Below, one piece after another: positions 1 to 7,062 of a stretch of 7,062 nucleotides of DNA; within the stretch, counting starts at the first letter, position 1; each line of letters begins with the position of its first letter. The stretch is taken from positions 1 through 7,062 of the IMG/VR virus record IMGVR_UViG_2778261641_000004; one strand, given 5' to 3'. The stretch is from a virus. Taxonomy: Duplodnaviria; Heunggongvirae; Uroviricota; Caudoviricetes. The position numbers were made by a program, and so were the translations under genes. Below the pieces are notes generated by a model, which did not search any database, was not told the origin of the DNA, and saw nothing but the letters and a program-made list of their open reading frames with translations.

Positions 1-873
1 CTGGAAATCCTCGGTACATTCATCGCGGGTGTCTGGGTATCCAAGGTTCTGGGGGCTTTCGGAAAAATATCAGGTTTACCGGTCCCACCCTGGCTTAAAT
101 TGTGGGCGCTTTACGCGGGCTATATTGTTAGCGACAGAGAAAATATTGCCGATAGCGCAAAATCTTCACTGAGGTATACGAAGCGAATTATCGGCGACAC
201 GCTGGCTGCTATTGGTATAAAAACAGATATCGGACGCAGGGATGTCAGTGAGGTCCGTGAATGGCCTGCGTGGATGGACTGGTTGCACGGGGGCCCCGGT
301 AAAGTTATCCGGCAGGGACAGAGTAACGGTGTAGTGCATGGCTCCAACGTCCAGCCCGACATCCCCGGCGGCGGTACTCTTGCTGATCGCAACAATAACC
401 CCGGGAACATTCGCCCGGTGAGCGGTAAAGGGTTCCGGTTTTTCGAATCAGCTCTTGAGGGCTGGGAGGCGATGAAAAACCAGCTCATGCGTTACTTTAC
501 CGGGAAAACAACCGGACGGGCATTACAGACTATTCAGGATATTGTCAGTACCTGGGCCCCGGCAGGTGATAACAACGATCCGAAAAAGTATGCACAGGAT
601 GTTGCGAAATGGATGGGAGTATCACCGAATGCAATATTGAATCTTACAGATCCCCAGACTATGGGTGCATTGATGCAGTCGATGGCGCGAAAAGAAGGTT
701 ATTCAAACTGGAACAGCCCGCTGGCGTATCAGGCCGCCGCTGGCAGCCTTAACCAGCAGACTGTTATAAATGTTCATGGAGTTAACAACCCTCAGGAGGC
801 GGCTAATCTGATCGCTGACAAGCAGGGGGCTGTAAATGCCAGGGCGGTACAGCAATTGAAAGGACCTGCGTAA
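1..873 (+). CDS. C-terminal part of a large tail protein, probably tape measure protein (5'-truncated by window edge)
   Basis: Frame 1 is open from base 1 (no stop before the TAA at 871-873), so the ORF starts upstream of the window. The first ~45 aa are hydrophobic (LEILGTFIAGVWVSKVLGAF...), followed by a Gly/Pro-rich region and a globular-looking C-terminus. It sits immediately upstream of the tail/baseplate genes and its stop overlaps the next start (TAATG). Confidence 0.5.
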   Translation: MEILGTFIAGVWVSKVLGAFGKISGLPVPPWLKLWALYAGYIVSDRENIADSAKSSLRYTKRIIGDTLAAIGIKTDIGRRDVSEVREWPAWMDWLHGGPGKVIRQGQSNGVVHGSNVQPDIPGGGTLADRNNNPGNIRPVSGKGFRFFESALEGWEAMKNQLMRYFTGKTTGRALQTIQDIVSTWAPAGDNNDPKKYAQDVAKWMGVSPNAILNLTDPQTMGALMQSMARKEGYSNWNSPLAYQAAAGSLNQQTVINVHGVNNPQEAANLIADKQGAVNARAVQQLKGPA

Positions 874-1523
874 TGGACTTTTTATCTGTTTTACTGCAGC
901 AGCGAACCCGCTCAATAGGAATCATTATTCCTGATGTGGTTATTACCGAAAAGCACACTGACGCCCTAGAAATTACGGAACATCCGGTTGAACAGCCCAC
1001 GAATGCTGGTGCCAGTGGTGAGGGCGCTGGTTATATATCAGAACACGCATTCAGGCGCCCTTCTGAGGTTGTGATGGAAACCGGTTTTTCCGGAGGCGGA
1101 TCGCTGCTTGATTTTGCCAGTAACCTGACGGCTACCAGTTTACTGGGTCTGAGCCCGAAAGAACTGTATCAGGAGTTGCTTAATCTGCAGCGGGATCGTA
1201 TTCCTTTCGATGTGACAACCGGCAAGCGTATTTACAACAATATGTTGATAAAAACGCTGGAGGTGACGACTGACAAGAGTAGTGAGAATGTGCTTCTGGC
1301 GACCCTTACCCTCAGGGAGGTGATTATTACCTCCACGCAGTCAATCAGGGTTGCCTCGAAAAACAATATGACCGAGGGAGTCGGAACGTCTGCTGTGCAG
1401 AATACAGGCACCAAAACAACGGTGCCGCCGAATAATTCCATTCTGAAATCGCTGCCACAGATAGCGCAAAAAGGTGTCACCACTGTCGATGGGTATCTGA
1501 GCAATTTATTTCTGGGAAGGTGA
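873..1523 (+). CDS. phage tail/baseplate assembly protein, function unassigned (216 aa)
   Basis: ATG at 873 overlaps the upstream stop (TAATG) with AAGGA 8 nt upstream. Position between tape-measure-like and hub-like genes suggests a tail assembly role; no family motif recognised with certainty. Confidence 0.45.
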   Translation: MDFLSVLLQQRTRSIGIIIPDVVITEKHTDALEITEHPVEQPTNAGASGEGAGYISEHAFRRPSEVVMETGFSGGGSLLDFASNLTATSLLGLSPKELYQELLNLQRDRIPFDVTTGKRIYNNMLIKTLEVTTDKSSENVLLATLTLREVIITSTQSIRVASKNNMTEGVGTSAVQNTGTKTTVPPNNSILKSLPQIAQKGVTTVDGYLSNLFLGR

Positions 1524-1526
1524 TTC

Positions 1527-1829
1527 ATGGAGGCCGTAGAAATCCCACTGGTTGCTGACAATCAGACTTTTGCCACCACAATTAACGGTACGGTTTATCA
1601 ACTGTCTGTCATCTGGCGCGGAGAGTACTGGGTTCTGGATCTTGCTGACAGCAATGGTTCCGCCATTATCTCAGGCATTCCGATGATTACGGGTGCTGAC
1701 CTGTTGGCGCAGTATCGATATATGAATCTCGGGTTTTCGCTGGTGGTACTCTGCGACGTGGCAGGGCAGGAAAACCCGACGCAATTCGATCTTGGAACGC
1801 TCTCACACCTCTATGTTTTCACGGAGTAA
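1527..1829 (+). CDS. small phage tail-associated protein, function unassigned (100 aa)
   Basis: ATG at 1527 lies 3 nt after the upstream stop with GGAAGG 6 nt upstream, and is tightly packed in the same operon. No recognisable LysM or other motif. Confidence 0.45.
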   Translation: MEAVEIPLVADNQTFATTINGTVYQLSVIWRGEYWVLDLADSNGSAIISGIPMITGADLLAQYRYMNLGFSLVVLCDVAGQENPTQFDLGTLSHLYVFTE

Positions 1830-1831
1830 CA

Positions 1832-2863
1832 ATGTCGAAAAACTGGATGCGTCACTTTGAATTATTGCTTGTTGATGATAAGGGCGACGGGATAAAAATT
1901 TCTGAGCTTAAAGTCACTTTCAATATTCAGAAAATGCCTGCGAGCATATTTAATGGATTCGTTGGAAATTTTAAGGTTTATAACCTGTCCCCTACCACTC
2001 AGAATCGGATTATGCAAAAGGAGTTTTCGCGTATACAGGTTATTGCCGGATACAAGGGGCAACCGGATGCAGCAGGTAATTATCCTGATGAAAACGTTGG
2101 TATGATATTCAATGGAGATATCCGTTTTACTGTCACTGGTAAAGATAATGCCACAGACAGTTGGATCATGTTGCAGTGTATTGACAGCTGGGAAGGTCAC
2201 CTGAACGCAAGTGTGAAAACCACAGTGGCAGCTGGCTGGAAGTACAGCGATCTTTTCAGTCTGGGTATGAAATCATTCGAACCATATGGCATCGAATCCG
2301 GTGCAGTTCCTGACATGCCGGAAACGGTATTCCCCAGAGGTCGCGTTGTTTATCAAAACACATCAAGGTTGATGAATCATATCGCAGGGCAGTGTAAAGC
2401 TAACTGGTGGTATGAAAATAATCTGGTAAATATTGTTCCTGAAGATAAATATATTGGTGTTGCTACGGTGTTGAATGCTAACACCGGGCTTATCGGTATG
2501 CCACAGCAGACGATGGGCGCTGGCGTAAATGTCAGATGTCTGATTAATCCAAATATTAAGCTCGGTGGGCTTATTCGTCTGGATCAGGCATCTGTATACC
2601 GTGCCTCTTTGAGTAATGACCAGGTAGCGAAATCGCCAGCACGACTGGATGAGTCTGAAAGCGACGGTAATCTCTACGTTAACGGTCTGCCAGGCATGTC
2701 ACAGCCTGCCAGCATTAATACTGACGGTGATTACATTGTGGGCAGCATTGATTATACTGGCGATACCCGAGGGCAGGCGTGGTATATGGACCTGCTTTGC
2801 CTGGCTAAAGGTGGCAAAGAATTGCTTAACTCGAAAGGGATTGATGCGGAGAAATACACATGA
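1832..2863 (+). CDS. baseplate hub-like protein (P2 gpD / Mu gp44 / T4 gp27-like), 343 aa
   Basis: GGAG 5 nt upstream of ATG 1832. The N-terminal pattern (AGYKG...IFNGDIRFTVTGKDNATDSWIMLQCID) and C-terminal pattern (GAGVNVRCLINPNIKLGGLIRL ... GDYIVGSIDYTGDTRGQAWYMDLLCL) resemble hub (late control D) proteins as I remember them. Not verified by search. Confidence 0.5.
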   Translation: MSKNWMRHFELLLVDDKGDGIKISELKVTFNIQKMPASIFNGFVGNFKVYNLSPTTQNRIMQKEFSRIQVIAGYKGQPDAAGNYPDENVGMIFNGDIRFTVTGKDNATDSWIMLQCIDSWEGHLNASVKTTVAAGWKYSDLFSLGMKSFEPYGIESGAVPDMPETVFPRGRVVYQNTSRLMNHIAGQCKANWWYENNLVNIVPEDKYIGVATVLNANTGLIGMPQQTMGAGVNVRCLINPNIKLGGLIRLDQASVYRASLSNDQVAKSPARLDESESDGNLYVNGLPGMSQPASINTDGDYIVGSIDYTGDTRGQAWYMDLLCLAKGGKELLNSKGIDAEKYT

Positions 2864-3195
2864 AAAGACCATTGTTGACAGTTTTACTTGTCTGTATCTC
2901 CTTCATTTCCTTTGCTGATACCGGTTGCGGACCATTTACGATCAACTGGAAAGCGCAAGACGGACTTGCAAGGATTAATGGACAGAAACCGGAGACACAG
3001 AAAATCATCTTTCTCAAACAGGAAGGTGATTATGACAATGTGAACATCCAATGGATGATTCCGGGTAATGGGCGTTGGTTAGGGATGGATTTTGTGGCCA
3101 GAAATGGCAAGCCGATCCTCAACGTTGAAGTTATCCGCAAAAATATGGACGAGCCTCGGGAGTTCTGGACGTATGATTGCCGGAAGGTTAAATGA
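2860..3195 (+). CDS. small secreted (periplasmic) protein with Sec signal peptide; candidate moron / superinfection-exclusion-type protein (111 aa)
   Basis: ATG overlaps the hub stop (ATGA). The N-terminus MKRPLLTVLLVCISFISFA is a classic signal peptide (basic n-region, hydrophobic core, SFA cleavage motif). There is no canonical lipobox. The mature part has two Cys (near residue 23 and near the C-terminus). The gene is AT-rich and is followed by an intrinsic terminator. Confidence 0.6.
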   Translation: MKRPLLTVLLVCISFISFADTGCGPFTINWKAQDGLARINGQKPETQKIIFLKQEGDYDNVNIQWMIPGNGRWLGMDFVARNGKPILNVEVIRKNMDEPREFWTYDCRKVK

Positions 3196-3210
3196 TCTTG
3201 CCCTCTCCGT

Positions 3211-3234
3211 AACCCACCGTCAGGTGGGTTTTTT
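3211..3234 (+). terminator. rho-independent terminator (T1) closing the TMP-hub-secreted protein transcription unit
   Basis: Perfect 8-bp stem AACCCACC / GGTGGGTT with a GTCA loop, followed by a T6 tract (3229-3234). The hairpin overlaps the last codons of the convergent mnt-like gene. Confidence 0.75.
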
Positions 3235-3540
3235 GTTTAGCAGTTCTCTCAACTTTTCGTTCTGCTCTCTGAACTTTTCCTGTATTTCTTTTTGCATGGC
3301 GATAACCTGGGCTTGAAGTTGAACTAGCGCATCAACATTTAGCGGAACCGAGACGCTGTTGATTTTGTCTGCTATTTCCCCAAGAGTATTTTCTGCATTC
3401 AAGGCATCTTCCAGTATCTGCACAATCTCTGAGTTCATTGATCTGCCGTTACGTTTAGCTCGTTCAGCTATAGCATCTCGCATTCCTGCAGGAAGCCTGA
3501 TATTGAACCTATCCATTTCATGACTAGGGAACTTGCTCAT
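3220..3540 (-). CDS. mnt: Mnt-like ribbon-helix-helix (Arc/MetJ superfamily) repressor with C-terminal coiled-coil (106 aa)
   Basis: DRFNIRLPAGMRDAIAERAKRNGRSMNSEIVQILEDAL aligns with remembered P22 Mnt (HFNFRMP...ANGRSMNSELLQIVQDAL). The C-terminal heptad-like region (LQAQVIAMQKEIQEKFREQNEKLRELL) is consistent with Mnt tetramerisation. GAGG lies 6 nt upstream of the ATG on the - strand. Confidence 0.8.
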   Translation of the reverse strand: MSKFPSHEMDRFNIRLPAGMRDAIAERAKRNGRSMNSEIVQILEDALNAENTLGEIADKINSVSVPLNVDALVQLQAQVIAMQKEIQEKFREQNEKLRELLNKKPT

Positions 3541-3574
3541 ATGACCTCAATGTAAAGATGTTTGCTAAACAATA

Positions 3575-3630
3575 GCACCAACTTGACATCAAAATAAATG
3601 GTGTTAAATTGGTTCTAGAACCAAGTTGGT
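3575..3630. promoter_or_regulatory. divergent promoter/operator region between mnt-like and arc-like genes (putative Pant plus operators)
   Basis: Perfect -35 TTGACA (3583-3588), a 16-nt spacer, then extended -10 TGtTAAATT (3602-3610) facing arc/ant. A 16-bp perfect palindrome TTGGTTCTAGAACCAA (3609-3624) overlaps the -10 and predicted +1. A 9-bp inverted repeat ACCAACTTG (3577-3585) / CAAGTTGGT (3622-3630) overlaps the -35. The - strand promoter for mnt could not be placed confidently. Confidence 0.55.
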
Positions 3631-3651
3631 ATCATTGTGGGAGGATTACTT

Positions 3652-3825
3652 ATGAAAGATGTGCTTTACACAGGTCGTAAAAGTCAAAGTTTCCAGCTTC
3701 GTTTGCCAGCGCGAATGAAGGAGGAGATTAGACGTGTTGCTGAAATGGATGGAATTTCTATCAACTCTGCGATTGTGCAGCGACTGGCTAAAAGCCTGAG
3801 AGAGGAAAGAGCTAATGCCCAATAA
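3652..3825 (+). CDS. arc: Arc-like ribbon-helix-helix repressor (57 aa)
   Basis: SFQLRLPARMKEEIRRVAEMDGISINSAIVQRL resembles remembered P22 Arc (QFNLRWPREVLDLVRKVAEENGRSVNSEIYQRV). GGGAGGA (3639-3645) lies 6 nt upstream of ATG 3652. The GTG start at 3637 in the ORF track lacks an RBS. Confidence 0.75.
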   Translation: MKDVLYTGRKSQSFQLRLPARMKEEIRRVAEMDGISINSAIVQRLAKSLREERANAQ

Positions 3826-3898
3826 AAATAGTGAAGCCCGGCAGTGCGCGAACACAAACCGGGCCTCTATGTCAGTAACCGTATGCAAGGAAACTAAC

Positions 3899-4525
3899 AT
3901 GAATATTGTAGCAAAATCAGATTACAACTTCCACGGAGTTGAGTTGGTGCCCACCCGTGATATGCATGGTGTTTGGTTTACGTCATCTAATATTGCATCT
4001 GCACTTAAATATGCAAATAGCCGTGCAGTAACAATGATTTATAACAAGTATAGCGATGAGTTTAGCGCCGGAATGACTCAGGTACTCGAAGTGAGTACCT
4101 CAGGAAATTATCGCAAAAAAGTGCGAGTTTTCTCACTACGCGGTGCCCACCTAATCGCGATGTTTGCTCGCACTCCGGTAGCCAAAGAGTTCCGCCGCTG
4201 GGTGCTGGATATTTTGGATCGGCAGGCAGAATGCTCACCGATTGCAAAACAGTTCACTGACGAAGAGCTGGTTAATCTCTGCTACTTACAATTGTGGATG
4301 GAGAAGAGTCAACAAATGTGCAAACACATCTACCCAGGAATGAAGCAAATTGGTTCTGAGCTTTCAGGAAGGATTTACGATATTGCATATGAGACTCGCT
4401 ACATGTCAGAAGAAACCAAGAAATCACTTCTTCGTGAAATGAAGAATCTTGATACCAACAATTTTGTCGTAAAGAACGCTCAGCCAATGCTGGCAAAACT
4501 TCGCGGCGAGGAATGGATTCATTGA
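3899..4525 (+). CDS. ant: phage antirepressor, BRO-N/Ant-type N-terminal domain (209 aa from ATG 3899; possible upstream start at 3815)
   Basis: YNFHGVELVPTRDMHGVWFTSSNIASALKY ... LRGAHLIAMFARTPVAKEFRRWVLDIL matches the BRO-N/antirepressor pattern (F.F..IR...G.PWF.A.DVA.ALGY ... A..F..WV). AAGGA (3887-3891) lies 7 nt upstream of ATG 3899. The gene is immediately downstream of arc, as in P22 immI. Confidence 0.7.
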   Translation: MNIVAKSDYNFHGVELVPTRDMHGVWFTSSNIASALKYANSRAVTMIYNKYSDEFSAGMTQVLEVSTSGNYRKKVRVFSLRGAHLIAMFARTPVAKEFRRWVLDILDRQAECSPIAKQFTDEELVNLCYLQLWMEKSQQMCKHIYPGMKQIGSELSGRIYDIAYETRYMSEETKKSLLREMKNLDTNNFVVKNAQPMLAKLRGEEWIH

Positions 4526-4540
4526 TTGGTGCACAGGACG

Positions 4541-4574
4541 GCGCAAAAGAAAACCGCCAGTGTGCTGCTGGCGG
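4541..4574 (-). terminator. reverse-strand rho-independent terminator in the ant - antirepressor-2 intergenic region
   Basis: Perfect 7-bp GC-rich stem CCGCCAG / CTGGCGG (4554-4560 / 4568-4574) with a 7-nt loop. On the - strand it is followed directly by TTTTCTTTT (complement of + 4545-4553). On the + strand it is followed by CCTATGTCAC, with no U-tract, so it is oriented for leftward transcripts only. Confidence 0.6.
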
Positions 4575-4618
4575 CCTATGTCACACCCTTACTACCACAT
4601 AAGGAATGCCTAATGACT
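4545..4618 (-). ncRNA. candidate sar-like antisense RNA overlapping the RBS and start codon of the second antirepressor-like gene (hypothetical)
   Basis: Candidate - strand promoter inside the 5' end of the 4613 gene: -35 GTGACA (+ 4648-4653), 17-nt spacer, -10 TACATT (+ 4625-4630), predicted start near 4617-4619. The transcript would run leftward across ATG 4613 and SD 4601-4605 and end at the - strand terminator, giving about 70-75 nt. This is inference only. Confidence 0.3.
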
Positions 4619-5338
4619 TTTAAGAATGTAGCAAACATCGGATCCGTTGTCACGGATAAAACCATTGACAGCCAAAGTCTTCTGATGATGGTTAATGAAG
4701 CTCGCAAGTTATGTGGAGAGCCATCAGTACGTAACAACAAATTCATCGAGAAAATTGAGGATGAATTGGAAGGCGAGACCTACACAAAAAGTGTAGGTCG
4801 GAAAAACGGGGCTGACATTGATGTTATCTCCATGACTATCAAGCAGGCGCTTCGTGTTGCTGCTCGCGAATCTAAAGCAGTTCGCCGCTCACTTGTAGAC
4901 CAACTTGAAAGTATGCAAGAAGCGCACATTAAAAGCGGTAAATCGTCGAGTGGACTTGTTGAGTATCGCCAGGCGCGAACATTGAAAATGACGGTTGAAG
5001 CTGTTACCAATCTGTTCGATTTGATGCCAAATCTTGCGCCGGAAGCAAAGCAGACCGCGGCCGCAAGCATAATCAACCCGATCGTTGGTTTTAATGCAAT
5101 ACCCCTTCCGGCAATAGAAGAGCATTACTACTCAGCAGGGGAGGTTGCAGAGCAGCTTGGAGTAACGGCCAACAAGATTGGTCGCATTGCTAACGCAAAC
5201 AACCTCAAAACTGAGCAGTACGGGAAGTTCTTCCTGGATAAATCGGCGCATTCCAGCAAACAGGTGGAAGCATTCCGCTACAATGCGGAAGGTGTTAAAG
5301 CACTACAACACCTGGTTCATGGGAGTAATGTTGCATAA
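4613..5338 (+). CDS. second antirepressor-like / phage regulatory protein (Rha-like N-terminus, KilAC/ANT-like HTH C-terminus), 241 aa
   Basis: AAGGA (4601-4605) lies 7 nt upstream of ATG 4613. The N-terminus (TIDSQSLLMMVNEARKLCGEPSVRNNKFIEKIEDEL) resembles Rha-family regulators. The C-terminus (YYSAGEVAEQLGVTANKIGRIANANNLKTEQYGKFF) resembles the KilAC/ANT antirepressor C-terminal domain. The TTG start at 4526 in the ORF track has no RBS and would read through the hairpin. Confidence 0.5.
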   Translation: MTFKNVANIGSVVTDKTIDSQSLLMMVNEARKLCGEPSVRNNKFIEKIEDELEGETYTKSVGRKNGADIDVISMTIKQALRVAARESKAVRRSLVDQLESMQEAHIKSGKSSSGLVEYRQARTLKMTVEAVTNLFDLMPNLAPEAKQTAAASIINPIVGFNAIPLPAIEEHYYSAGEVAEQLGVTANKIGRIANANNLKTEQYGKFFLDKSAHSSKQVEAFRYNAEGVKALQHLVHGSNVA

Positions 5339-5559
5339 TGGCAAAGAAAAAATATGGCATTATGCCGCCAAGAATCAAAGGAAGAGCCATGGTAAAAGGC
5401 GATGCTGGGAGATATCACATTCTTGGTGTTTTGTGGCATGAGAGAGCTTTAATTTTAAGCAGACCTCATGGGTACATTGAAAAGGTATCTATAGATAGAA
5501 TTGAGATTCTTCCCCTTACTCCTGAAGAAGAAGAAACGTACGGACTTTTTGATAACTAG
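5338..5559 (+). CDS. small hypothetical protein (73 aa), translationally coupled to the antirepressor-like gene
   Basis: ATG 5338 overlaps the upstream TAA (TAATG). It has a basic N-terminus (MAKKKYGIMPPRIKGR) and an acidic C-terminus (TPEEEETYGLFDN), and is followed by terminator T2. No family recognised. Confidence 0.45.
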   Translation: MAKKKYGIMPPRIKGRAMVKGDAGRYHILGVLWHERALILSRPHGYIEKVSIDRIEILPLTPEEEETYGLFDN

Positions 5560-5570
5560 CCAATTCACTA

Positions 5571-5594
5571 AACCCAGCTTCGGCTTGGTTTTTT
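5571..5594 (+). terminator. rho-independent terminator (T2) at the 3' boundary of the accessory module
   Basis: Stem AACCCAGC / GCTTGGTT (one mismatch or bulge) with a TTCG tetraloop, followed by a T6 tract. It matches T1 at 19 of 24 positions. Confidence 0.7.
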
Positions 5595-5613
5595 ACTTTC
5601 TGGAGACATATGA

Positions 5614-6369
5614 ATGCCCGTTTCTTTAAGCGATCAACTTGGTAGCAAAGAACAGGCCGATGTAAGACTTGCTGGCTCTGTCATGTCGGCGCTGCGTGTT
5701 TCTATGCCCGGCATCGTCCAGTCATTTGATCCGGACACGGTAACAGTGGTTGTTCAACCTGCGATTAAAGGCTATGAGCCGGACTCAAATGGAATCAACC
5801 AGTCGACGACATTACCCCTGCTGGTGGATGTGCCGGTGGTATTCCCGCGCGGCGGCGGCTGCACGTTAACTTTCCCGGTGAAAGCCGGCGATGAATGTCT
5901 GGTGATTTTTGCCGATCGCTGCATCGATTTCTGGTGGCAGAACGGCGGGGTACAGGAGCCTGTCGATGACAGAATGCATGATTTATCGGATGCGTTCTGT
6001 ATCGTCGGTCTGCAGTCTCAGGCGCAGAAAATCAGCGGAATCAGCACCAGCGCCGCGCAACTGCGTACTGATGATGGCGCTGCGTTTGTGGAAGTGGCCG
6101 CAGGCCATAACATCACGGTTAAAACCCCCGGCGCGCTGACGGCGACAGCAGAAGGTGGGACAACAATCACATCCCCGACTATCACGCTGAACGGCAACGT
6201 AACGATTAATGGCAATCTGTCTCAGGGAATGGGCGAAAGTGGCGGTACTGCGACGATGCTTGGCCCTGTCACGGTGACTAACGATGTAAAAGCTGGTGGT
6301 AAGAGCCTGATGACGCACACGCACGGCGGAGTACAGACCGGCGGCGGTAACACAGGAGCGCCTAACTGA
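5614..6369 (+). CDS. baseplate central spike protein (P2 gpV / phi92 gp138-like, OB-fold N-domain plus Gly-rich beta-helix with His apex), 251 aa
   Basis: GGAG 8 nt upstream of ATG 5614. The N-terminal pattern (LLVDVPVVFPRGGGCTLTFPVKAGDECLVIFADRCIDFWW) is OB-fold gpV/gp138-like. The C-terminus has Gly/Thr-rich repeats ending in KSLMTHTHGGVQTGGGNTGAPN, analogous to the P2 gpV apex (KVLHTHKHPGD...), where the HxH motif binds iron. Confidence 0.8.
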   Translation: MPVSLSDQLGSKEQADVRLAGSVMSALRVSMPGIVQSFDPDTVTVVVQPAIKGYEPDSNGINQSTTLPLLVDVPVVFPRGGGCTLTFPVKAGDECLVIFADRCIDFWWQNGGVQEPVDDRMHDLSDAFCIVGLQSQAQKISGISTSAAQLRTDDGAAFVEVAAGHNITVKTPGALTATAEGGTTITSPTITLNGNVTINGNLSQGMGESGGTATMLGPVTVTNDVKAGGKSLMTHTHGGVQTGGGNTGAPN

Positions 6370-6722
6370 TGCGATACAGACGTGAAGACGCCGATGGCGA
6401 TTATACCTTTGGCAGCGGTGATGACACCTGGCTGATTAACTCACCGGAGGCCGTGGCGCAGGCGGTAAAAACGCGATTCAAATTGTGGTATGGGCAATGG
6501 TTTCTCGATACCACCGAAGGGACTCCGTGGATCCAGTCCGTACTCGGTAAGCAGAAGCCGGAAACCTACAACCTGGCGATCCGTAAGCGCATCCTCGAAA
6601 CGCGGGGCGTTAAATCAATCCTCTCTTTCAATACGACGGTGGATACCACGACCCGACGTGTCATGTTTTCCGCTGAAATCGACACTCTTTATGGAATAAC
6701 GACTGTTACATCGGAGGCGTAA
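6369..6722 (+). CDS. small baseplate wedge protein (gpW/gp25-like or DUF-type baseplate protein), 117 aa
   Basis: ATG overlaps the spike stop (TGATG). Its size and its position between the spike and the baseplate-J gene match gpW/gp46-type proteins. The sequence-level match is not certain. Confidence 0.5.
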   Translation: MRYRREDADGDYTFGSGDDTWLINSPEAVAQAVKTRFKLWYGQWFLDTTEGTPWIQSVLGKQKPETYNLAIRKRILETRGVKSILSFNTTVDTTTRRVMFSAEIDTLYGITTVTSEA

Positions 6723-7062
6723 TGGCTCTGAACCTTGATTCTCTCGGTTTATCTGCAAAGGTAACCGCAGAGGGGATCAGTGCGCCTGATTATCAGACGA
6801 TACTCAGCACCCTGATTAGCTATTTTCAGCAGATTTATGGCAGTGATGCCTACCTCGAACCAGACAGCAAAGACGGCCAGATGGTGGCTCTGATGGCGCT
6901 GGCGATTCATGATGCCAATAATACTGCGATAACTGTCTACAACTGTTTTTCACCGGCAACCGGCTATGGGGCTGCACTGACCAGTAACGTGAAAATAAAT
7001 GGTATTTCACGTAAAGGCGCGACGAACTCTACGGTTGATTTGCTTCTTACAGGAACTGCCGG
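6722..7062 (+). CDS. baseplate J-like protein (P2 gpJ / Mu gp47 family), N-terminal 113 aa, 3'-truncated by window edge
   Basis: ATG overlaps the upstream TAA (TAATG) and the frame is open to the window end. The sequence (DYQTILSTLISYFQQIYG...ATGYGAALTSNVKINGISRKGATNSTVDLLLTG) fits the Baseplate_J N-terminal pattern. It is absent from the ORF track only because it has no stop in the window. Confidence 0.75.
   Translation, partial: MALNLDSLGLSAKVTAEGISAPDYQTILSTLISYFQQIYGSDAYLEPDSKDGQMVALMALAIHDANNTAITVYNCFSPATGYGAALTSNVKINGISRKGATNSTVDLLLTGTA

Follow-up and report, generated by a model that had tools for sequence, protein, structure and literature searches.

Between two divergent genes for ribbon-helix-helix proteins, a contractile-tail prophage carries a short intergenic region crowded with inverted repeats. 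Which of the two proteins reads these repeats, and what do they control? We addressed this in a stretch of 7,062 nucleotides (IMG/VR record IMGVR_UViG_2778261641_000004, positions 1 to 7,062; hereafter the window), whose features are collected in Table 1. Judged from sequence comparison, the TTGGT/ACCAA words of the region are most likely half-sites of a single Mnt-like repressor that would keep ant off, as in phage P22.

Identity and setting of the cassette

The locus is a P22-type immI ("ant moron") cassette, with a divergent mnt-like gene followed by an arc-like gene, ant and a sar-like antisense RNA. Its gene order matches the annotated immI of P22 and that of Escherichia coli 55989. The claim of the first-pass annotation that an ant-promoter control region lies between genes for Mnt-like and Arc-like ribbon-helix-helix proteins is thus borne out by the Pfam assignments and by homology to P22. 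The Mnt-like product shares 54% identity with P22 Mnt over residues 12-48 (BLASTP 2e-13), where the similarity stops; it has an N-terminal ribbon-helix-helix with the DNA-facing strand R11-F-N13-I-R15 and a helical C-terminal half. Judged by eye only, this half appears heptad-like; P22-type Mnt is a tetramer formed via its C-terminal helical domain. The Arc-like protein is 42% identical to P22 Arc (BLASTP 9e-11) and matched Arc entries of the PDB, including 1arq. Both proteins belong to the Arc family and are 38% identical to one another. The C-terminal part of the ant product aligns with residues 206-274 of P22 Ant (29% identity, E 1e-9), and the start at 3899 is equivalent in position to the RefSeq start in E. 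coli 55989.

The cassette is cargo within a myovirus baseplate operon, inserted between the baseplate hub and spike genes, and two further ORFs follow ant. In sister prophages this slot is filled either by an immI of a different specificity class (L164) or by a DUF4282 gene unrelated to the cassette (L165). A block 98% identical to the cassette occurs in a P22-like prophage of E. coli 55989, where it is flanked by the genes for the ejection proteins and by that for the tailspike. In these respects the block resembles the ant moron described for P22-like phages, an autonomous mnt/arc/ant cargo with its own expression, variably present in a late operon (Villafane et al. 2008, PMC2629481), from which it differs in its position among the baseplate genes of a contractile-tail prophage.

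Table 1. Features of the immI-type cassette and its control region (coordinates refer to the window)
Feature	Position	Strand	Remarks
mnt-like gene, 106 aa	3220..3540	-	Pfam Arc PF03869, E 1.6e-20; PDB match 1mnt
Predicted Pmnt extended -10	3569..3577	-	TGCTATTGT on the minus strand; back to back with Pant
Half-site s1	3573..3582	+	TAGCACCAAC, core ACCAA 3577-3581; adjoins Pant -35, overlaps predicted Pmnt -10
Pant (predicted)	3583..3610	+	-35 TTGACA 3583-3588, 16-nt spacer, extended -10 TGtTAAATT 3602-3610
Half-site s2	3598..3606	-	ATGGTGTTA, minus strand TAACACCAT; overlaps Pant extended -10
Perfect 16-bp palindrome	3609..3624	.	TTGGTTCTAGAACCAA; s3 (TTGGT 3609-3613) + s4 (ACCAA 3620-3624)
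19-bp dyad	3616..3634	.	TAGAACCAAGTTGGTATCA = TAGAACCAA-G-TTGGTATCA (s4 + s5); perfect 11-bp core ACCAAGTTGGT, 3620-3630
Outer right half-site	3631..3635	+	ATCAT in the window; from the symmetry profile (k=15-19) and the class A alignment
arc-like gene, 57 aa	3652..3825	+	DNA-facing strand S13-F-Q15-L-R17; Pfam PF03869 (Arc), E 8.3e-12
Predicted sar-like antisense RNA	3826..3898	-	covers the ant ribosome-binding site
ant (antirepressor)	3899..4525	+	Pfam P22_AR_C 4.2e-14, Bro-N 2.3e-10
Predicted Psar extended -10	3905..3913	-	TGCTACAAT on the minus strand; inside ant codons 3-5
9-mer in ant	3942..3950	+	AGTTGGTGC; judged a chance match, outside the operator set

Predicted promoters of the control region

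For comparison, about 90 distinct homologous control regions were assembled and classed by the strand of their Mnt-like protein, the window falling into class A. The promoter scan agreed with the first-pass annotation in placing a promoter with a perfect TTGACA -35 at the palindrome. Pant scored 10 of 12, with a -10 of TAAATT (3605-3610) and TG upstream; it occupies the position of the annotated P22 Pant, and its -35 is invariant across the classes. From the hexamer positions, the centre of the palindrome (3616/3617) coincides with the expected start site at approximately 3617. Reading the palindrome as an RNA hairpin was rejected because transcription would start within it. All Rfam matches stayed below threshold; they comprised symR (21.8 bits, gathering score 61) and, on the palindrome, a microRNA model.

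In P22, Pmnt faces Pant, with its -10 just to the right of the Pant -35. The window has TCAAAA at that place; instead, a TGnTAnnnT motif is conserved to the left of the Pant -35. It recurs at a constant position in 38 of 39 regions of class A and in 13 of 13 of class B, with variable middle bases. We take this motif as the extended -10 of a putative Pmnt, whose start would be expected near 3562; like Pant, it is a prediction.

Repeats and probable half-sites

The repeats described by the first-pass annotation are exact. This applies to the 16-bp palindrome at 3609-3624, to the 9-bp inverted repeats flanking it (ACCAACTTG at 3577-3585 and its inverse CAAGTTGGT at 3622-3630), and to the 9-mer AGTTGGTGC in ant, which is the inverse of GCACCAACT at 3575-3583. 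The palindrome is the longest of the whole window. One of at least 16 bp arose in 10.4% of dinucleotide shuffles of the window and in 47 of 20000 shuffles (0.24%) of the 111-nt intergenic region, while a spaced exact inverted repeat of at least 9 nt occurred in 2.8% of the intergenic shuffles. These 111 nt contain four copies of TTGGT/ACCAA, where the density of the word across the window would predict 0.35.

The palindrome also ranks first in conservation among the dyads of class A (mean 6.92 of 9). Its outer five positions are symmetric in 87-100% of the relatives, inner positions 2-3 in only 54-69%, and its perfection in the window is therefore partly fortuitous. In class A, symmetry around the centre of the palindrome reaches out to position 19, which yields four phased blocks. 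Of these, s2 is kept as AAATgGTGcTA and is symmetric with the outer right block (k=15-19) in 85-92% of class A. Most class A relatives have CACCAT/GCCAT as the outer right half-site, 11 bp from s4, whereas the window has a degenerate copy that matches at 4/5 bases. At the left end, TAGCACC of s1 is invariant in class A and has same-place counterparts in class B (TAGCATCAT) and class I (AGAGGCAAC). Inclusion of TAGCA of s1 in the repressor site was rejected, as it is better explained by the extended -10 of Pmnt; this word, together with the TAG of the half-sites, may be kept for promoter reasons (Pmnt -10, start site) rather than for repressor contacts.

Altogether, Pant and the predicted back-to-back Pmnt are spanned by five phased half-sites, whose cores begin near 3577, 3599, 3610, 3620 and 3631. 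With core spacings of 22, 11, 10 and 11 bp, all five lie on the same side of the helix. The comparison of control regions thus supports the view that the repeats act like operator half-sites.

Two overlapping dyads have the central ACCAA (3620-3624) in common: the palindrome, centred at +33.5 from the start of the -35, and ACCAA-G-TTGGT, centred at +42. The layout of the latter, a -10 followed after 5 nt by a 9-1-9 dyad, is common to the window, P22 (TAGGTCCAC G GTGGACCTG), class C and class I, and a dyad centre at +42/+43 ranked top in P22 and in classes C, H and I. Judged by position in these sequences, the dyad at 3616-3634 is the homologue of the P22 mnt operator (Omnt). In the geometry of P22 the two dyads could not be occupied together, and one or the other would be used.

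Co-variation of the repeat word with the Mnt-like protein

The first-pass annotation assigned one TTGGT core to two repressors and suggested a search for this half-site in homologous prophages. In class A (Mnt strand RFN[IV]R), an unbiased 5-mer count returned ACCAA/TTGGT as the top word of all 40 control regions (3.08 per region), kept despite diverged flanks. Beyond this class, other words stand at the same positions, namely CATCA in class B (RFT[VI]R; 4.69 per region, with ACCAA at 0.15), CCCAC in class C and GGCAA in class I (KFTVR). The Mnt strands of classes G and H are KFNLR and KFVVR. The repeated word co-varies with the Mnt-like protein, in its N-terminal arm and beta-strand, and not with the Arc-like protein; this argues that the TTGGT sites are Mnt-like half-sites and are not common to two repressors.

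The type of the Arc-like protein is independent of the word in both directions. The class A layout is kept with five Arc-like strands (SFQLR, AFNLR, VFNLR, QFSLR and RFTLN) and across Escherichia, Rahnella, Erwinia and Izhakiella. Conversely, an Arc-like protein 96% identical to that of the window, with the same strand SFQLR, is paired with TTGGT-free control regions, e.g. of class B. The SFQLR strand as a whole is combined with classes A, B, E and F, which have no repeat word in common.

In the natural chimeras L019, L047 and L016, codons 16-106 have 90-99% identity to the mnt-like gene of the window, but codons 1-15 and the control regions are unrelated to those of the window, and the repeats are different ones. 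A short N-terminal region sets the specificity of Arc and Mnt (Knight and Sauer 1989, as cited in PMC3413123), and the chimera pattern agrees with that result as it is cited there. As the first 15 mnt codons adjoin the control region, the co-variation could partly reflect linkage and not function. A literature search found no paper describing these operator classes.

The 9-mer in ant and the sar-like RNA

The exact 9-mer repeat within about 400 bp had been considered very unlikely to arise by chance. However, when the 400 nt downstream were shuffled 5000 times, 1535 of the shuffles (31%) had a 9-mer in common with the intergenic region, so the proposed distal site in ant is at chance level. 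The 9-mer tracks the ant allele and not the Mnt class: the class B loci L105 and L109, whose ant allele is that of the window, have it too, whereas 24 of 29 class A loci carrying a different ant allele lack it. Candidate Mnt sites scattered through ant and beyond it (4347, 4450 and 4899) were likewise rejected, since class B loci sharing this ant allele also have them and the core word shows no enrichment elsewhere than in the control region.

The internal promoter suggested for this part of ant does exist as a predicted homologue of P22 Psar; the 9-mer lies upstream of it, but nothing connects the two. This Psar is at the same place as the annotated P22 Psar (15097-15125), and its TAGCA/TACA word is kept across unrelated ant alleles. 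The RNA that it would direct is homologous to the annotated P22 sar (15021-15090) and ends in an intrinsic terminator, a hairpin (3833-3867) followed by a T run. Across 30 sequences, five of the nine hairpin pairs show compensatory changes and none is broken. Rfam gave no qualifying family match for the sar-like RNA.

Search for an operator of the Arc-like protein

No Arc-like operator was found when the spacers and flanks of all SFQLR-paired regions were compared across Mnt classes A, B, E and F, nor among class A regions with other Arc strands. The SFQLR-paired regions have in common only the promoter hexamers and a CAATG/AAATG word, which also occurs with other Arc types. Between the Pant -35 and -10, the place of the 21-bp Oarc dyad of P22, no dyad or word is kept among regions with the same Arc strand, and the spacer varies by class. 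TTGACAC (versus TTGACAT) was considered as a VFNLR-linked feature and rejected, as it is also found with SFQLR (L173).

Since its operator was not located, the Arc-like protein may touch part of the array. On the other hand, it has been exchanged freely among at least four operator classes, as the Mnt N-terminus never has, and might for this reason act elsewhere or via protein contacts. We rate as rather unlikely a combined explanation in which the Arc-like protein has no operator in the Pant/Pmnt region and acts on conserved DNA or RNA elsewhere (e.g. the arc-ant/sar leader) or via protein contacts, while the Mnt-like protein shuts both back-to-back promoters by coating the five-site array, not activating Pmnt as P22 does. 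Action elsewhere or through protein contacts is not a known mode of P22 Arc.

Alternative explanations

We consider it probable that 3541-3651 is a P22-type immI control region in which the TTGGT/ACCAA words are half-sites for the Mnt-like protein alone. That both proteins share overlapping TTGGT-core operators, with 3942-3950 as a distal site for looping or for an internal promoter, now seems improbable, even though the two are related Arc-family proteins, the two P22 operators are adjacent, the place equivalent to Oarc (~3588-3608) overlaps s2, and the 9-mer is located 9-17 nt upstream of the predicted Psar -35 position. The free combination of Arc-like strands with repeat words speaks against it on both sides, i.e. 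SFQLR with four Mnt classes and five Arc-like strand types within class A, as do the shuffles and the allele distribution of the 9-mer.

Very improbable, in our view, is an assignment of the 16-bp palindrome to the Arc-like protein, with only the flanking s1 and s5 left to the Mnt-like one. TAGA is the key box of the P22 Arc operator. The TCTAGA in the palindrome amounts to two TAGA boxes that overlap, and hardly any class A region deviates from TAG at 3616-3618. However, a TAG/TAA there is common to all classes and fits a transcription start; the conserved part of the palindrome is the outer TTGGT/ACCAA and not the centre; and L103-L111, whose Arc-like proteins are 96% identical with the same strand, have control regions without such a palindrome. 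It is hardly credible that the repeats are functionless, a product of chance symmetry or recombination leftovers in an AT-rich intergenic region. The whole-window shuffles would allow this for the palindrome, and 10-mers of the control region recur in the rest of the window in excess of expectation. Nevertheless, the palindrome is locally rare, the words are kept in 40 distinct class A regions, other classes have their own words at the same positions, and the homologous P22 site is an experimentally defined operator (annotation of NC_002371).

Proposed mechanism and comparison with known systems

The sequences, their conservation, the way they co-vary with the N-terminus of the Mnt-like protein and their homology in position with P22 are observations; from these we infer that the repressor binds at all, its stoichiometry, the choice of dyad, Pmnt and the direction in which regulation would run. 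Each ribbon-helix-helix dimer would insert a two-stranded sheet (R11, N13 and R15) into the major groove at one half-site. As the half-sites are phased on one face, the bound Mnt-like repressor would occlude Pant from its extended -10 through the start site to transcribed base 18, so that neither arc-like nor ant would be expressed in the lysogen. At the left end, a site lies across the predicted Pmnt extended -10, by which the repressor would also control its own gene. By analogy with P22, Pant would fire after infection, and Ant would then be limited by the Arc-like protein and the sar-like antisense RNA.

The cassette shares with P22 immI the divergence of mnt from arc-ant, the Arc-family ribbon-helix-helix nature of both repressors, the TTGACA -35 of Pant, the 9-1-9 dyad 5 nt after the -10 at the start site, and a sar-type RNA that would start from a promoter within the first ant codons and end at a terminator hairpin between arc and ant. 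It differs in its half-site word (ACCAA versus GTCCAC in P22), in the extra phased half-sites over the -10 and upstream of the -35, and in a third half-site creating the second, overlapping dyad, i.e. the palindrome. Moreover, the distance from mnt to Pant is 20 nt longer, Pmnt is predicted back to back with an extended -10 rather than face to face inside Pant, and no dyad is recognisable at the Oarc place. Ant bears a Bro-N N-terminal domain, two more ORFs follow it, and the whole resides in a myovirus baseplate operon.

Promoters covered by several short half-sites, some direct and some inverted and each roughly a helical turn from the next, are also a feature of the ribbon-helix-helix repressors omega of pSM19035, ParG, CopG and MetJ. 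Dimers of this kind bind neighbouring motifs cooperatively, and specificity moves with the ribbon when it is transplanted (PMC3413123). Cooperative binding to the array may likewise be expected of the Mnt-like protein, although it is not a close relative of these repressors and its array is short (five sites) and built around a P22-type dyad.

Significance

These results do not overturn the current understanding of immI. If the assignment is true, ACCAA is a new operator specificity for the classic Mnt/Arc system. The family constitutes a natural ribbon-swap series, in which one Mnt body (codons 16-106, 90-99% identity) is joined to at least four different 15-residue N-termini, each with its own set of repeats at the same promoter positions. 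It would therefore provide a data set for the ribbon-helix-helix recognition code and for the design of orthogonal repressor/operator pairs. The ant moron, in turn, moves as a unit between podovirus and myovirus late operons.

Identity and location of the cassette

The genes flanking the control region, the intergenic stretch between the two repressor genes, are homologous to those of P22 Mnt, Arc and Ant, and also match the solved Mnt and Arc structures. Their order is that of P22 (NC_002371), in which Pant, Pmnt, Oarc, Omnt and sar are annotated. A P22-like prophage of E. coli 55989 carries a 98% identical counterpart of the entire block, with the DNA-transfer genes on one side and the tailspike gene on the other; this is the position of the ‘ant moron’ of Villafane et al. 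(PMC2629481). Judged by its sequence, the locus adds a new specificity to the P22 immI/ant moron family. In the window (2860-5560), the block is flanked by baseplate hub and spike genes, which belong to a contractile-tail prophage. The same slot in sister E. coli prophages (loci L164 and L165) is taken up by an immI variant of a different specificity class or by a DUF4282 gene that is unrelated. The immI cassette is therefore mobile cargo.

Two ORFs (4526-5338 and 5338-5559) travel with ant; neither has a Pfam match, E. coli 55989 has both, and the equivalent of the first is annotated as KilA in phage JEP4. A GC-rich hairpin with T runs (3211-3230), between the ends of ORF 2860-3195 and mnt, lies where it could terminate the two converging transcripts. 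A recent 79-aa ‘Arc family DNA-binding protein’ (PDB 9pio, chain G) matches both repressors of the window (E about 5e-5).

Features of the immI cassette and its control region in the window
Feature	Position	Strand or orientation	Sequence or remark
mnt-like gene	3220-3540	-	106 aa, Arc-family ribbon-helix-helix
Control region	3541-3651		111 nt
arc-like gene	3652-3825	+	57 aa, Arc-family
antirepressor gene (ant)			Bro-N and P22_AR_C domains
Perfect palindrome	3609-3624		TTGGTTCTAGAACCAA
Exactly inverse 9-mers	3577-3585 and 3622-3630		ACCAACTTG and CAAGTTGGT
Lengthened arms of these	3569-3585 and 3622-3638		17 nt, 82% complementarity
9-mer and its inverse in ant	3575-3583 and 3942-3950		GCACCAACT and AGTTGGTGC
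Half-site s1	core 3577	right	TAGCACCAAC
Half-site s2	core 3599	left	ATGGTGTTA
Half-site s3	core 3610	left	TTGGTTCTA
Half-site s4	core 3620	right	TAGAACCAA
Half-site s5	core 3627	left	TTGGTATCA
Outer right half-site	core 3631	right	ATCAT, mostly CACCAT in relatives
Dyad centred +42	3616-3634		TAGAACCAA-G-TTGGTATCA
Pant -35	3583-3588	+	TTGACA
Pant -10	3605-3610	+	TAAATT, 16 nt after the -35, TG before
Pmnt, predicted extended -10	3577-3569	-	TGCTATTGT
Psar, predicted extended -10	3913-3905	-	TGCTACAAT, inside ant codons 3-5
sar homologue with its promoter -10, predicted	3826-3913	-	ends at hairpin 3833-3867 and T run
Recombination joint in mnt	3494/3495		codon 15/16
Words of at least 10 nt shared with the control region	3233-3242, 4159-4168, 4347-4357, 4450-4459, 4629-4639, 4899-4908, 6992-7003

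Repeats and palindrome in the control region

Direct reading and a repeat finder both located the palindrome, the flanking inverse repeats and the 9-mer copies described in the first-pass annotation. Their significance was assessed with dinucleotide-preserving shuffles of the whole window, the 111-nt intergenic region and the 400 nt downstream. A palindrome of at least 16 bp arose in 10.4% of the whole-window shuffles versus 47 of 20000 shuffles of the intergenic region, and 2.8% of the latter held a spaced exact 9-nt inverted repeat. The repeats are real and locally non-random, and mark a predicted operator.

The consensus of class A, i.e. the homologous loci sharing the DNA-facing strand of the window's Mnt-like protein (30 distinct sequences, anchored on the -35), reads aaA.aaTAGCACCaACTTGACATc.ttttAAATgGTGcTAAATTGGTT.TAGaACCAAgTtG..accAt. 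Half-site cores at 3577, 3599, 3610, 3620 and 3631 are separated by 22, 11, 10 and 11 bp, which places these five cores on one face of the helix. Half-site s4 is common to two overlapping dyads, centred +33.5 and +42 from the start of the -35. The former, the 16-bp palindrome, is the best conserved in class A (mean 6.92/9 matches), and symmetry around its centre extends to position 19 in two blocks (87-100% at k=4-8; 85-92% at k=15-19, except for 46% at k=16). At inner positions 2-3 the symmetry drops to 54-69%, so the perfect 16/16 palindrome of the window is partly fortuitous. In the +42 dyad the core CAA-G-TTG is 90-100% symmetric within class A and the full ACCAA-G-TTGGT in 62%; it is the top-ranking centre in P22 and in classes C, H and I.

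The +42 dyad lies exactly at the place of the P22 mnt operator, the order -10, 5 nt and 9-1-9 dyad being the same in both, and the resemblance continues past the dyad, where P22 has ATTGTGAGG and the window ATTGTGGGAGG. The palindrome, proposed earlier as an operator, most likely does mark one, but the counterpart of the P22 operator is 9 bp off it and shares its right half. If dimers are placed as in P22, s4 can pair with s3 or with s5, but not with both.

Assignment of the repeats to a repressor

With the Mnt-like and Arc-like proteins as queries, viral contigs yielded 160 loci, and another 14 came from species-representative genomes; the former gave 80 distinct control regions and the latter further ones. 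We sorted them into classes according to the strand at the N-terminus of the Mnt-like protein, and identified repeated words by an unbiased 5-mer count or, where uncounted, by reading the sequences. Each Mnt-strand class had its own repeated word.

Repeated words of the control regions by strand of the Mnt-like protein
Class	Mnt strand	Word	Occurrence
A	RFN[IV]R	ACCAA/TTGGT	3.08 per region, 40/40 regions
B	RFT[VI]R	CATCA	4.69 per region (ACCAA only 0.15)
C	VFNLR	CCCAC	3.0 per region
I	KFTVR	GGCAA	3.0 per region
Stx-phage	KFNLR	TGGYRCCA	read from sequences
D	PFGLR	CACGGTG	read from sequences
P22	HFNFR	GTCCAC	read from sequences

It had been suggested that two repressors share a common TTGGT core, but the word tracks the Mnt-like strand and not the Arc-like one. 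The Arc-like strand SFQLR is paired with classes A, B, E and F, and at loci L103-L111 an Arc-like protein 96% identical to that of the window adjoins a class B region without TTGGT. Conversely, the class A layout is unchanged beside the Arc-like strands SFQLR, AFNLR, VFNLR, QFSLR and RFTLN, in Escherichia, Rahnella, Erwinia and Izhakiella. The TTGGT sites are best assigned to one repressor, the Mnt-like protein.

An Arc-like operator was not found when control regions were compared within the same Arc-like strand: nothing beyond the promoter hexamers and the word CAATG/AAATG was common to these, and that word was rejected as an Arc-like site, being also present with other Arc types. Words of 10 nt common to the control region and the rest of the window occupy 11 positions, versus a shuffle mean of 1.9 and 6 for the next-best 111-nt segment. 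Several shared words of at least 10 nt include TTGGT/ACCAA; the core word itself is not enriched in the rest of the window, and the ant-internal copies of shared 10-mers also occur in class B loci.

Class B regions (L112, L127 and others) have two adjacent P22-type 19-bp dyads, GRCATCA-NNN-TGRTGYC, over the -10 and at the start site, together with a half-site upstream of the -35 and another on the -35 itself, an arrangement unlike that of class A.

Promoters

The promoter scan found Pant as the sole plus-strand sigma-70-type site of the intergenic region. Its -35 and -10 positions make the palindrome centre coincide with the expected start site, bearing out the earlier placement of the palindrome at a start behind a TTGACA -35. 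The conservation of TAG at 3616-3618 may reflect this start. In P22, Pmnt is located within Pant and faces it, its -10 directly adjoining the Pant -35 on the right, whereas the window has no Pmnt -10 hexamer there and 20 nt more between mnt and the -35. Its predicted Pmnt is instead back to back with Pant. The motif TGnTAnnnT occurs at this fixed place (equivalent to 3569-3577) in 38/39 class A and 13/13 class B regions with varying middle bases, the signature of an extended -10 promoter, and Pmnt may be the reason why TAGCA in s1 is conserved. Relative to P22 immI, the window differs in its extra half-sites and in a predicted rearrangement of Pmnt. Half-sites s1 and s2 are placed alike in Pmnt and Pant, respectively, each overlapping the TG and reaching just upstream of it; the Mnt-like protein would repress Pant and also limit its own promoter.

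The copy in ant and a sar-like RNA

The exact 9-mer repeat in ant had been considered very unlikely by chance and a possible distal operator. However, a 9-mer in common with the intergenic region arose in 1535 of 5000 shuffles of the 400 nt downstream, so the match is not unusual. The exact 9-mer was found only with the window-type ant allele, including two class B loci (L105 and L109); six class A loci with this allele have a silent G-to-A variant, and of the 29 class A loci that have other ant alleles, 24 lack TTGGTG in the vicinity. Dependence on the ant allele and the chance expectation together remove the case for a distal operator at 3942-3950, and on this evidence the copy is a chance match.

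Homology to P22 sar and Psar extends over the arc-ant spacer and into the first codons of ant. The internal promoter suspected in ant exists as the predicted Psar; no link of the 9-mer, 44-52 nt upstream of the predicted sar start, to Psar was found. In the hairpin preceding the T run, 5 of the 9 pairs show compensatory changes and none is broken (30 sequences). The homologue of the sar antisense RNA is predicted to run across the ant ribosome-binding site.

Natural chimeras of the Mnt-like gene

In loci L019, L047 and L016, mnt codons 16-106 are 90-99% identical in DNA to those of the window, while codons 1-15 and the control region are at background similarity and three other repeat words are present. 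Conversely, class A loci with C-terminal halves diverged to 63-78% retain the RFN[IV]R strand and the ACCAA layout. The chimeras are the sharpest evidence for the assignment of the repeats, and together the two sets of loci indicate that the N-terminal arm, the strand and the control region are a co-travelling unit. The recombination joint directly follows the beta-strand of the Mnt-like protein; Stx-phage cassettes are among those with shared codons 16-106 and unrelated codons 1-15 and control region.

Linkage contributes to this association, as codons 1-15 physically adjoin the control region; arc is exchanged freely on the other side, so adjacency alone does not enforce it. That the arm and strand travel with the control region is predicted by the Arc/Mnt hybrid experiments of Knight and Sauer, as cited in PMC3413123; that paper also shows that specificity is transferred with a transplanted ribbon and that ribbon-helix-helix dimers assemble on adjacent motifs. 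At the sequence level, the chimeras amount to natural ribbon swaps on one protein body, a series which we consider the most useful by-product of this analysis.
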